In this document: positions 36,960-41,496 of the stretch, piece after piece
Layout: the number at the start of each line of letters is the position of its first letter
Numbering within the stretch: position 1 is the stretch's first letter
Virus record (IMG/VR): IMGVR_UViG_3300027861_000010
DNA length: 64,000 nt
DNA from: a virus
Direction: 5' to 3' (one strand)
Made by a program: the position numbers and the translations under genes
Notes under the pieces: generated by a model
Seen by the model: only the letters and a program-made list of their open reading frames with translations
What the model was told of the DNA's origin: nothing
Databases searched by the model: none

Positions 36960-37910
36960 GTGACACCCGCTAAAGGCAAGAAAGAAGCTCAACGACTTCT
37001 TCTCAAAACTTCCCTGCCCGAAGGGCAGAGTGCTCAGCAACTCAAGTTCTCGGTCGATTACTTGTCATTCTTCGGCTACATCGCTGTTGAATTGCTGAAG
37101 AACATGAACATGAAGGACCTCGAGAAGGCTGTCAAAACCTTCCAACGCTGGTTCGGATTGAAAGCTGACGGGGTTGTCGGACCCATGACGCTTCGAGCGA
37201 TGGAAATTCCTCGCTGCGGTTGTCCTGATGTTATCGACGAAGCCAACAACGTCCATAAACAGTACATGCAGATGCAGGCCGTCATCGAAGAGAACATGGC
37301 CAAGTGGAACAAGAAGGGCCTGACGTACGCCGTGCATAGCTATGTCGGAGGAATGTCCAAGACGGCTCAGCTTAAAATCTTTGCGGGAGCCTGGAAAGCG
37401 TGGGACGACGTTTGTGGTTTGAACATCCAAGCTATTGGTGATGTTGACAAAGCCGACCTGGTACTCAGTACCGGCTCTGGTTCTCGTCATAGCTTTGACG
37501 GACGTGGCGGCACTTTAGCCTGGGCTTACTTGCCCAACGGACGCGATCGCCAACTGCTGATGCGGTTCGATTTGGCAGAAACCTGGATCAGTAATCCACG
37601 GGAACGTGGTATTCTATTATTCAACGTCGCTTGTCATGAGTTCGGTCACATGATCGGTTTGACGCACTCCAAGAAAAAGGGAGCATTGATGGCTCCCTAT
37701 TACAATCCAGGGGTGGCAGTGCCGCAGTGGGATGACGATATTCCACGAGCAGAAGCCCGCTACGGGAAGGACACGGCACCGCAACCGCCAAAACCGCCAA
37801 AACCGCCAAAGCCCGATCCCGGAACTCCCGGCACGGATGATGAGGAGATATTCCATGTACAATGCAAAGGGCTCAAAGTCGATGGGTACACGCTTTTTGC
37901 AGATAAGTAG
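36960..37910 (+). CDS. Pro-matrixin (peptidase M10A) with PG-binding-like prodomain and cysteine switch
   Basis: AVKTFQRWFGLKADGVVGPMT, PRCGCPD switch, HSFDGRGGTLAWA, zinc motif HEFGHMIGLTHS, Met-turn ALMAPYY, Pro-rich hinge PKPPKPPKP. Confidence 0.9.
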   Translation: MTPAKGKKEAQRLLLKTSLPEGQSAQQLKFSVDYLSFFGYIAVELLKNMNMKDLEKAVKTFQRWFGLKADGVVGPMTLRAMEIPRCGCPDVIDEANNVHKQYMQMQAVIEENMAKWNKKGLTYAVHSYVGGMSKTAQLKIFAGAWKAWDDVCGLNIQAIGDVDKADLVLSTGSGSRHSFDGRGGTLAWAYLPNGRDRQLLMRFDLAETWISNPRERGILLFNVACHEFGHMIGLTHSKKKGALMAPYYNPGVAVPQWDDDIPRAEARYGKDTAPQPPKPPKPPKPDPGTPGTDDEEIFHVQCKGLKVDGYTLFADK

Positions 37911-39792
37911 TCTGCTGCTGCTGTGGACTTCGAGCTTACTGGGGCAGGACAAACCGGTTGAAGGTCTCGACAAGCAATTGCAAATAGAAAAGCCAACGCC
38001 GGAGCAGGAAGCGGCGGTTCTTGATGCAGTCAAAGAGGTCGTAGATGCTGTCGCTCCAGCTCCCGCAGAGAACCAAGCAGCTGAACTGAAGATTACACTT
38101 CTTTCGACACCGGACGATGCCGTTCGGGCTGCCGCGGCTGATCTTGCGGGTTTGAAAAAGCTTGCGGAAGACAATGGAGTTGTTGATTTCGATACAACAC
38201 CTTATCGCTACGTCTGGATTCCTGACGCGAACCCAGAGGACTTGGCCTTGGTATCCTTTGTCTTGAATTCGGTAGTGTCCAGGAGTGACGTCAACTACAC
38301 GCCGAACCGACGCAACAGTCCGATCCAATTCGTTAACGGAAATAAGCTTGTCAGGGTTAACATGGCGATCTTGTCTCCGCTAAACGGCGGAGCCGGGTTG
38401 CTCGACACGTTGGCGACGTGGGATAAAATGTTCAACCCGTACTTCATGCTGGAGAAGCAGGAAGCTAATCGAGAAGTCACCACATCAATCCAGAAGCGTG
38501 TATCTGTTGAGCCTTACGTTGCTGACGACGGCAAGACGTACGATTACAAGATTCAGAATGTCGAAGTCAAAACGGAAGAGGCAGTCTTCGCTGAGGACAA
38601 GGTTTTTGGTCCGCACATTGACGTAGACAACGGGGCGTTACTCAAGACGATGACGGCAGCTAAGAACCCCATCATCTGGTGCCACACGCTTTACCAACAG
38701 GCTCTGACTACTGCTGACGGCGGACTTTATTATGAGTTCATGAATCTGCGTAAAGCTCCCAAAGCTACGGAAGGTAAACCTCAACTATCCGATCAGGCTT
38801 TCTGGTTAAGCGGGCTCGGGATTAGCGAAAAATTGATTGATCAGCTGCGGGCAGACCAGCGGGCAGCCATGACCCGATCCAATGTGACAGCAAAGCCGCG
38901 ACGAGTAGATGTGTTCAATCGCCCTAGCCGATCAAGCAACAATCAAGGTATCATTGCGATTACTCAGGATATGTTCGATGCGGACTACAAGACCGCAGCT
39001 GATCCGTTCCTGAATTTGCTGGAGTTCAAGACGTCCGGACGGGAAGTTGTCTTCGAGAGAAACAACGGCCACCTGGGTTACATCTTGTTCAACGGCGAAG
39101 GGGGTTTGGTGGACGAAGCTCCGCCGCAATTGGTTGCAGATCACACGATTCCAGCCCCGAATACTGCTCGGCTCCAGCCGGGTATTTCATGTATTCGGTG
39201 CCACGGGAAAGGAGAAGATCAAGGTTGGAAACCGTTCGAGAACCACGTACAGCAAGCGATGACTGGTTTCTTGAATGTTTACAACGACCGTCAGGGTGAA
39301 GCGGACAACCTCACAATCCCTGGTACTTTGCAGAAGCTGGCACGACTGTATGCGGGTGACTTGGATAAGCCACTGCGGCGTGCTCGCGAAGACCATACTG
39401 ATGCTATCGTGGTTTGTACAGCAGGAGTTGTGCAAACCAAAGAAGGAAAACCTTGGGGTTTTCGAGAAGTTTCTGAAGCTCTTGCTGAGCGATTCATTTA
39501 CTACTCGTACACTCCGGTTACGCCACTCAAAGCTTGTCGAGAGATGGGCTATGAAGTGACGGATGACGAAGCGGCAGTGACGTTGGTCAATCGGCTATTG
39601 GGTTTTCTGAACACAAACCCCGATGTCAATGTCACACCGGAAGATGTCCGAGTCGGACTTTTGAAACTCAACATTCCGATCAACCGTTTCCAGTGGGAAT
39701 TGATCTATGTTGATGCAATGACTCGGTCTAATGTTAATTCACAACAACTCAACCTGACTCCACAACAACCCGCGGAGAAGAAGGAAGAGTAA
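37882..39792 (+). CDS. Exported protein with a single CxxCH heme c motif (Planctomycete-like)
   Basis: Signal peptide MGTRFLQISSLLLLWTSSLLG; motif GYILFNGEGGLVDEAP..LVAD...GISCIRCH. Confidence 0.65.
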   Translation: MGTRFLQISSLLLLWTSSLLGQDKPVEGLDKQLQIEKPTPEQEAAVLDAVKEVVDAVAPAPAENQAAELKITLLSTPDDAVRAAAADLAGLKKLAEDNGVVDFDTTPYRYVWIPDANPEDLALVSFVLNSVVSRSDVNYTPNRRNSPIQFVNGNKLVRVNMAILSPLNGGAGLLDTLATWDKMFNPYFMLEKQEANREVTTSIQKRVSVEPYVADDGKTYDYKIQNVEVKTEEAVFAEDKVFGPHIDVDNGALLKTMTAAKNPIIWCHTLYQQALTTADGGLYYEFMNLRKAPKATEGKPQLSDQAFWLSGLGISEKLIDQLRADQRAAMTRSNVTAKPRRVDVFNRPSRSSNNQGIIAITQDMFDADYKTAADPFLNLLEFKTSGREVVFERNNGHLGYILFNGEGGLVDEAPPQLVADHTIPAPNTARLQPGISCIRCHGKGEDQGWKPFENHVQQAMTGFLNVYNDRQGEADNLTIPGTLQKLARLYAGDLDKPLRRAREDHTDAIVVCTAGVVQTKEGKPWGFREVSEALAERFIYYSYTPVTPLKACREMGYEVTDDEAAVTLVNRLLGFLNTNPDVNVTPEDVRVGLLKLNIPINRFQWELIYVDAMTRSNVNSQQLNLTPQQPAEKKEE

Positions 39793-39826
39793 TTTCAAGG
39801 ACGTTCTCGAGGAAGGAGACTCACCG

Positions 39827-40980: not shown

Positions 40981-41430
40981 ATGAAGACGATTATTGCTGC
41001 CCTAGTCGCTATTGCGTTACTTTGGACAGGTAATGTGGCGACGGCTCAAACGTTAGGATTTTCTGGATCGAATGTGCATTCCCGGGTTCAGGCACTTGAT
41101 GCCCGAGTCCAGGCCATTCAACTCCAGCAACAAGCAAAGTTGGCTCGACAAGTGCAATTCATTCAGCAGCAACAGCTCGTGGCTGCCAATGCGGTGAACG
41201 TGCATTCTCAGTTGGCCCAGCTACGAGCCCTTCAACAGGCTCAGAATTTTAATGCCTTGGGTTTGAATAACATTTACGGCGGGGTGCATCAGTCTGCATT
41301 GATTGCTGCCCCAGGCGTACACCATCAAGCGGCCCAGGTTGTTGTTCAGCAGCCCGTTGTTGTCAGACAACAGGTTGTGAGGCGGCAAGTCTGTCAGCCG
41401 AGGTTGTTATTCAGGTCTAGGTGTAGGTAA
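40981..41430 (+). CDS. Secreted Gln/Val/Ala-rich low-complexity protein
   Basis: Signal peptide ending VATA; QVVVQQPVVVRQQVVRRQV tail. Confidence 0.7.
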   Translation: MKTIIAALVAIALLWTGNVATAQTLGFSGSNVHSRVQALDARVQAIQLQQQAKLARQVQFIQQQQLVAANAVNVHSQLAQLRALQQAQNFNALGLNNIYGGVHQSALIAAPGVHHQAAQVVVQQPVVVRQQVVRRQVCQPRLLFRSRCR

Positions 41431-41458
41431 GAATCCGAAGCGGTAGCCTAACCTTACA

Positions 41459-41496
41459 AGGCTCACCGGTCCTAACCGGCTGGTGAGCCTTTTTTC
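41459..41496 (+). terminator. Intrinsic terminator closing the MMP/cytochrome cassette
   Basis: AGGCTCACCGG...CTGGTGAGCCT followed by a T run. Confidence 0.75.

Follow-up and report, generated by a model that had tools for sequence, protein, structure and literature searches.

A 64,000-nucleotide stretch of DNA from an uncultured marine jumbo phage (IMG/VR virus record IMGVR_UViG_3300027861_000010; we call this whole stretch, at its full length, the window) carries a module of four genes, 4.5 kb in size, which comparison with other phages identifies as a real, conserved and mobile phage operon, predicted to be transcribed here with the late baseplate genes. We refer to these genes as g1 (the protease), g2 (the large heme protein), g3 (the PSCyt1 protein) and g4 (the small secreted peptide). 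Profile and domain matches indicate that a two-heme protein, encoded as a single chain in rare bacteria, is here divided between g2 and g3. The parts fall into known domain classes; no counterpart has been described for the g2 family, for the split, or for the obligatory partners, a protease and a peptide.

All four genes lie on the plus strand, each with a good ribosome-binding site, in a structural region of the phage that is itself encoded on one strand. The first, g1 (36960..37910), encodes a signal-less pro-matrixin of 316 residues, recognised by Pfam, by its motifs and by alignment with nine phage M10 homologues. It is followed by g2 (37855..39792), an exported mono-heme protein of 645 residues defined by homologue alignments, a CIRCH motif and an AlphaFold2 (AF2) model; by g3 (39827..40939), an exported PSCyt1 cytochrome of 370 residues with a Pfam match, the motifs CLACH and RMP, and a homologue alignment; and by g4 (40981..41430), an exported, low-complexity, basic peptide of 149 residues recognised from its composition and signal peptide. 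Each of g2, g3 and g4 bears a Sec-type signal peptide. An earlier reading made from the letters of the window (the sequence-only reading) had already proposed three signal peptides and two CxxCH proteins, CIRCH in g2 and CLACH plus RMP in g3; these features are seen in the sequence, and the motif residues are conserved in homologues.

The module recurs widely. A pattern scan of IMG/VR for g2 recovered 31 loci on contigs of 8-408 kb, which share no further gene with the window at the level of BLAST, and in a comparison of 37 loci g3 was clustered with g2 in 26, bearing out the co-occurrence in other phages that the sequence-only reading implied. The whole cassette is retained at the same site, from the Baseplate_J gene to the same downstream gene, in the loci L067 (g2 73% identical) and L032 (52%). 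Outside this lineage the module occupies varied, unrelated contexts and not baseplate genes; the position among baseplate genes is, by this comparison, specific to this phage lineage, and the fixed baseplate location suggested earlier holds only within it.

An artefact, either host DNA joined to a phage contig or a chance adjacency of four unrelated genes, could be suspected from the presence of PSCyt1, which is typical of planctomycete genomes, and from the way in which the cassette breaks up a structural operon. However, the GC content is flat (0.50-0.52) across the region, Logan contigs from four other runs (2012, 2018 and 2020; none flagged as a possible source) span both junctions at 100% identity, the genes are placed identically in L067 and L032, and the module is present in 31 viral loci. 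The junction-spanning contigs and the shared placement refute an artefact, to which we attach practically no weight, and the chimera with host DNA that the sequence-only reading had named as a danger gives way to a genuine phage cassette. The 7.5-kb stretch is present in 20 seawater runs, and no RNA run was listed among the sequencing runs that contain it.

For g2, the most likely start is the ATG at 37855, over 37732 or 37882, because a GAGGAG ribosome-binding site precedes it and because homologues share an N-terminal MY.AK. The product has a signal peptide at about residues 1-30 and a heme domain at about residues 296-522, within which CIRCH occupies residues 446-450 (nucleotides 39190-39204). 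C446, C449 and H450 are invariant across 28 aligned homologues, and a single CxxCH is the rule in the family (190 of 191 members); the alignments thus indicate that the heme motif is not a product of chance. Other invariant residues of g2 are Tyr292/Tyr293, Glu397, Asp429 and Asp478. No Met, Lys or second His is invariant in the 28 homologues, and the heme of g2 would be open and five-coordinate, without a conserved sixth ligand. One homologue (L027:5162-7003) begins with MNRRSFLITGAKAL..., a twin-arginine (Tat)-like signal that is unusual for a c-type cytochrome.

As judged from these searches, the g2 family is large, mostly viral and without described counterpart. A word-index search found 53 homologues, and a profile search matched 3,626 cluster representatives with an E of 1e-3 or better, 983 of them with 1e-30 or better, the best 150 matches all being full-length (486-735 residues). 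The family has no match in Pfam (including all 28 homologues, none of which matches PF16694), PHROGs or NCBIfam, a sequence-profile search of the PDB returned nothing relevant, and a tblastn search against 50,697 GenBank phage records gave no match.

Structure comparison suggests that the heme domain weakly resembles the beta-sheet cytochromes c' (c'-beta) and P460. The confident AF2 model of g2 (predicted local distance difference test score, pLDDT, 85) has as its top three matches in an all-against-all structural search the c'-beta/P460 structures 8brk (Z 5.0), 6hiu (4.8) and 7s5o (4.4), all weak, aligned over a five-stranded sheet and the CxxCH helix. The same three structures rank at the top when the heme domain is modelled alone (Z 4.4, 4.3 and 4.2), and the alignments from the two models cover 108-120 residues with a root-mean-square deviation of about 4 A. 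Foldseek searches of the PDB with the full and domain models returned nothing at E <= 0.001, as did BFVD, and the weak Foldseek rows (E > 0.1) include 7s5o and 7ead. Structural neighbours in the ESM Atlas include a Cytochrome_P460 cluster (template modelling score, TM, 0.52 by target). About 400 residues outside the heme domain match no known fold. On the models, g2 would be like c'-beta and P460 (PDB 8brk, 7s5o, 6hiu, 2je3) in having a mono-heme c domain, with a five-stranded sheet followed by the CxxCH helix and no conserved sixth ligand, though scores as low as these do not prove a common fold; it is four times larger, with extra N- and C-terminal domains that have no known fold, has no sequence or Pfam match to them, lacks an invariant Lys, and is always paired with a PSCyt1 cytochrome.

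The second heme protein, g3, is, on its motifs, a His/Met c-type cytochrome of the electron-carrier type. Its signal peptide ends in AFA, and the protein consists of a Tyr/Gln-rich N-terminus, a conserved helical middle and a C-terminal PSCyt1 domain. The PSCyt1 assignment (PF07635) proposed in the sequence-only reading was recovered by Pfam, marginally, at 23.9 bits against a cut-off of 22, and PF07635 is precomputed on five homologues. CLACH lies at residues 298-302 (nucleotides 40718-40732) and RMP at residues 339-341 (nucleotides 40841-40849), 37 residues past CLACH; 26 homologues all keep C298, C301, H302 and P341, and at least 90% of them keep M340. The first ~280 residues, rich in Tyr and Gln, are modelled poorly; the N-terminus carries a DG-Y-x-F/Y-x-DG-x-W-Y/W motif that resembles a motif in the tail of the protease, described below. 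Covalent heme attachment to both g2 and g3 is predicted from the motifs. Di-heme cytochrome c peroxidases and MauG also combine an electron-transfer heme with an open reactive heme in the periplasm, and MauG acts on a protein substrate; the analogy with g2 and g3 lies in the two-heme logic only, as there is no sequence or fold relation.

An open heme of c'-beta/P460-like architecture beside a His/Met carrier heme is what one might expect of a periplasmic metabolic helper (an auxiliary metabolic gene, AMG), with g2 and g3 acting as a stand-alone redox enzyme that turns over or detoxifies NO, hydroxylamine or peroxide, or as an extra respiratory electron path, energising the host during a long jumbo-phage infection, and with the protease and g4 as unrelated passengers. 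The phage is marine, found in 20 seawater runs, and redox carriers are known in phages, e.g. the plastocyanin of cyanophages. We nevertheless regard this as unlikely, though deserving of some weight: chance does not easily account for the way in which unrelated phages repeatedly keep the pair tightly linked to a protease, of any of three classes, and to a g4-like peptide, about 400 residues of g2 lie beyond the heme domain, the invariant Lys needed for the P460 cross-link is missing from g2, and the cellular relatives are wired to kinases and caspases and not to respiratory genes.

The last product, g4, has a signal peptide ending in ATA and a mature part of 127 residues with 27 Gln, 18 Val and a net charge of +11. 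It is rich in Gln, Val, Ala and Arg, has a C-terminal Cys-x9-Cys and contains a single tyrosine. A small g4-like open reading frame (ORF), with a signal peptide and a mature part rich in V, Q, R, F, G and N, follows g3 in 21 of 23 loci, and proteins of this type are always low-complexity, beta-prone and basic. A strong hairpin lies 3' of the g4-type ORF in all seven loci checked, with equivalents of the window's terminator in L067, L032, L001, L002, L004 and L033.

These compositions bear on another possibility, in which the heme protein, like a peroxidase, would cross-link Tyr/Gln-rich, low-complexity exported proteins (the N-terminus of g3, and g4) while the protease trims receptors or matrix, so that the envelope is hardened and superinfection blocked, much as the egg envelope hardens after fertilisation. 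The N-terminal parts of g3 are Tyr-rich, g4-type proteins are low-complexity, beta-prone and basic, the heme site of g2 is open, and the module ends with its own terminator in the manner of a moron. Yet there is no peroxidase family signature, the g4 of the window offers a single tyrosine, the protease has no export signal, and no lysogeny genes were seen adjoining the module, and we consider such hardening very unlikely.

A lead from the ESM Atlas, PSCyt1-bearing proteins of 590-890 residues in Planctomycetota and Myxococcota, points to the cellular counterparts of the heme pair. A profile of the g2 heme body matches 10 cellular proteins (E 1e-12 to 1e-18), and in L037, L043-45 and L061-66 one chain holds both PSCyt1 and a g2-like body. 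The sequence-only reading had stated that cellular homologues fuse a PSCyt1 domain to the larger heme body that is separate in the phage, and Pfam indeed places PSCyt1 N-terminal to the g2-like body in L037, L043, L044, L045 and L061. The L037 protein combines PSCyt1 (residues 44-93), a body that bears the second CxxCH (at 461) and a set of WD40 repeats; in L043, L044 and L045 an N-terminal PSCyt1 is followed by a second CxxCH about 380 residues on; and L061 and L064 have the order Ser/Thr kinase, PSCyt1, body. Such fused proteins are rare: of 151 genomes sampled from each phylum, seed genomes included, 4 in Planctomycetota and 1 in Verrucomicrobiota encode them, with several copies where present. 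A 99/95 branch divides the heme-domain tree into the 10 fused forms of cells on one side and the 31 split forms of phages on the other. The cellular proteins (of Planctomycetota, Verrucomicrobiota and Myxococcota) share with the phage pair a homologous heme body, the same two heme types and a linkage to proteases, but they are one chain with PSCyt1 at the N-terminus, are in some cases fused to WD40 or kinase domains, are accompanied by exported caspases and lack a g4-like peptide, whereas in the phage form the hemes are distributed over two genes with PSCyt1 at the C-terminus of g3.

The neighbours of the cellular fused proteins include a conserved exported protein of ~370 residues and exported WD40-caspase (WD40-Peptidase_C14), caspase-FGE-sulfatase or M48-TPR proteins. 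We tried and rejected the ~370-residue partner as an equivalent of g3 or g4: a profile of g3 matches PSCyt1 domains and nothing else, nor is the partner of low complexity. At planctomycete loci (L063:3401-9839, L065:7933-13266, L066:1-5628 and L061:6779-10758), the two-heme cytochrome stands beside exported WD40-caspases or is fused to a Ser/Thr kinase, a neighbourhood of cytochrome c, WD40 and caspase that is superficially akin, by analogy, to the logic of the apoptosome. PMC7159879, on conflict systems, makes no mention of the heme family or of this neighbourhood.

The cellular neighbourhoods raise the possibility of anti-defence, or control of a death pathway: as periplasmic sensors, the two-heme proteins of cells would set off exported caspase-WD40 proteases or kinases, and the phage would use its split copy and its own protease to block, decoy or hijack them. 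The two-heme protein does stand beside the ~370-residue exported partner and WD40-Peptidase_C14, or fused to Pkinase, a link to proteases is seen in cells and phages alike, and phages often carry homologues of host immune parts. On the other side, the cellular family was found in only the few genomes just counted, against a huge phage family, so that most hosts would be without the target, the phage and cellular forms are deeply separated on the tree, and the cellular ~370-residue partner was not found in phages. We find this reading improbable.

The distribution in cells has some bearing on the host. Only six loci were matched in a contig scan of cellular genomes, four of which are phage-type modules on contigs of metagenome-assembled genomes (MAGs) with taxonomically inconsistent bins, two of these four being planctomycete bins. 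The remaining two are L037 and a short contig from an acidobacterial bin with g2 and the beginning of a g3-like ORF. A PVC-type (Planctomycetes-Verrucomicrobia-Chlamydiae) host is plausible, if unproven. One Planctomycetaceae MAG contains a second, divergent module (L042:480-3439, on contig C316 of G002), in which an M10 protease with HRCGMPD precedes a 466-residue, single-heme g2-like protein; it forms a long branch, placed beside the cellular fused forms.

The protease is, to judge from its domains, a zymogen-like enzyme with a catalytic domain, a Pro-rich linker and a short C-terminal hairpin, whose catalytic class is interchangeable (M10, S8, C1). The pro-matrix metalloproteinase (pro-MMP) domains proposed in the sequence-only reading were found by Pfam: Peptidase_M10 (PF00413) at E 1.1e-28, with 100.5 bits where the threshold is 24, and a PG_binding_1 prodomain at residues 34-81 (2.7e-10). 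The cysteine switch is also present, as PRCGCPD at residues 84-90 (nucleotides 37209-37229), and is kept in L067, L032, L001 and L042; the zinc motif HEFGHMIGLTH occupies residues 226-236 (nucleotides 37635-37667) and the Met-turn ALMAPYY residues 242-248. At the C-terminus, a Pro-rich linker (nucleotides 37779-37832) leads to a beta-hairpin-like tail of 22 residues. Like the matrixins (MEROPS M10A, the animal pro-MMPs and bacterial members), g1 thus has a PG_binding_1-type prodomain, a PRCGxPD switch, HExxHxxGxxH, a Met-turn and a Pro-rich hinge, but it has neither a signal peptide nor a hemopexin domain, and the 22-residue tail follows the hinge. No signal peptide or hydrophobic N-terminal segment was found in g1, of which 36960 is the earliest start that the ORF allows. 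Against the PHROG endolysin families its matches are limited to the peptidoglycan-binding segment at residues 54-116, with no known peptidoglycan-hydrolase catalytic domain, the catalytic domain being M10.

A protease adjoins the module in about 20 loci, usually immediately upstream. It is of the M10 class in the window, L067, L032, L001, L005, L006, L013, L028, L030 and L042, a Peptidase_S8 in L007, L014, L019, L029, L031 and L033, and a Peptidase_C1 in L022 and L036 and, by clustering, also in L012 and L015. In none of these module-adjacent M10, S8 and C1 proteases was a signal peptide found. The class switches repeatedly along the g2 tree, and since S8 and C1 replace M10 in other phages the protease need not be an MMP; it appears from this pattern that some protease, of whatever class, is required.

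Proteases of all three classes share a C-terminal layout of a Pro-rich linker and a hairpin-like tail of 20-40 residues. This common arrangement across three unrelated protease classes looks like a convergent tether-and-dock design. The tail carries G-x-aromatic/hydrophobic strand motifs, seen at L014:3529-4578, L029:8557-9639, L012:3168-4103, L036:3257-4177 and 37779-37907 of the window. In three phages of 146-408 kb, the protease slot is filled by a conserved, signal-less protein of 161-166 residues that belongs to no known family (L002:9473-9958, L003:9293-9793 and L004:9229-9717), with a divergently oriented gene of 1,200 residues upstream of it.

Upstream of the module in the window is a Baseplate_J-like wedge gene (35283..36944, plus strand; Pfam PF04865 5.4e-10, phrog_6 1.7e-19), whose stop lies 15 nucleotides 5' of the g1 start, which suggests that g1-g4 are read together with the late structural operon. 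The end of g1 and the start of g2 overlap by 56 nucleotides (37855-37910), an overlap conserved in L067 and L032, in which the conserved C-terminal tail of g1 and the start and signal peptide of g2 are encoded in different frames. The module is closed by an intrinsic terminator (41458..41499, plus strand) with a 14-bp stem, a 6-nucleotide loop and a T run; its hairpin (41458-41491) has a folding z of -4.77, and none of 200 shuffles was as stable. Beyond it, on the same strand, lies a gene of the structural module (41510..43069), 65% identical in L067 and 50% in L032. Its start is most likely the ATG at 41510 rather than the GTG at 41483, because the latter falls within the terminator. The sequence-only reading had described four co-oriented genes, closed by a terminator, between Baseplate_J and the next gene, and this arrangement stands; its label of wedge gene for that next gene is no more than putative, as the gene matches no family in Pfam or PHROGs.

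Two further observations concern neighbouring ORFs. A sigma-70-type gene (33564-34319; Sigma70_r3 6.4e-9) lies within the baseplate operon, with counterparts in L067 (2625-3359, 66% identical) and L032 (5390-6220, 51% identical). In other phages an ORF of ~190 residues stands between g2 and g3 (L017:11422-12000, also L018 and L020), and the g2/g3 pair persists despite this interruption. The family of this ORF, found in six loci and sometimes twice per locus, may be a homing endonuclease, judging from its N-terminal sequence.

How might these parts act together? We propose, tentatively, as a reading that is plausible but short of probable, that the module acts late, in the envelope, and that its heme pair controls or complements proteolysis. 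The Sec and cytochrome c maturation systems of the host would mature the exported g2, g3 and g4, and the products would wait in the periplasm. The protease, with its peptidoglycan-binding prodomain and no export signal, would meet the exported parts only once the inner membrane opens late in infection; because it lacks a signal peptide, the four products would share no compartment until that membrane is breached, and the periplasmic redox and proteolysis module imagined in the sequence-only reading is changed to that extent. The roles which that reading suggested for it, in envelope remodelling, superinfection exclusion or lysis, are likewise conjectural. The heme pair would then carry out redox chemistry, or sense redox state, a gas or a ligand at the open heme of g2, and would thereby control or complement the cleavage of envelope or peptide substrates in egress or in envelope remodelling.

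This proposal resembles the canonical lysis cassettes, composed of a signal-less endolysin and exported spanins, in its wall-binding enzyme without export signal, its exported envelope partners and its late expression, the last suggested for g1-g4 by placement in a late operon. It differs in that g1-g4 have no homology to holins, endolysin catalytic domains or spanins, and we know of no heme proteins in lysis.

Several points weigh against the late-acting envelope module. The fold match of g2 (Z 4.2-5.0, Foldseek E > 0.1) is too weak for a shared fold to be concluded safely. The fusions to kinases in cells speak for sensing rather than catalysis, although the phage proteins have no transmembrane output domain. 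PHROGs assigned no holin, endolysin or spanin family to any of ten genes that adjoin the module in other phages, and the contexts of the module vary between phages, as they would for a moron. A role of heme in lysis has, to our knowledge, no precedent, and the signal-less, linker-tethered protease could instead be a part of the virion. Heme attachment, activity and late expression are predictions from the sequence.

A more far-reaching version, which we hold to be quite doubtful, would see in the module a signalling set of the bacterial periplasm ("cytochrome c - WD40 - caspase"), copied in split form and paired with the tethered protease and secreted low-complexity peptide of the phage. Gated by heme, such a proteolytic switch in the envelope of the host would set the timing or mode of wall failure, or block the death pathway of the cell. 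It would amount to a new class of envelope machinery in phages, one that relies on the cytochrome c maturation of the host.

A search of the literature found no description of phage c-type cytochrome or PSCyt1 cassettes of this kind, in agreement with the sequence-only reading, which knew of none; a preprint on phages of ammonia-oxidising bacteria (AOB) describes other heme-related phage genes. Should the predictions for these products hold, thousands of uncultured lineages of phages would rely on host cytochrome c maturation for a periplasmic two-heme protein that is coupled to a protease and a secreted peptide. If so, phage biology would gain a step that depends on heme, be it in lysis, envelope remodelling, exclusion or counter-defence; a large unannotated protein family would be defined; and the PSCyt1-body proteins, so far unstudied and wired by bacteria to caspases and kinases, would become more accessible. 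With the module present in dozens of unrelated uncultured phages, it appears that phages install a novel heme-and-protease machine in the envelope of the host cell.

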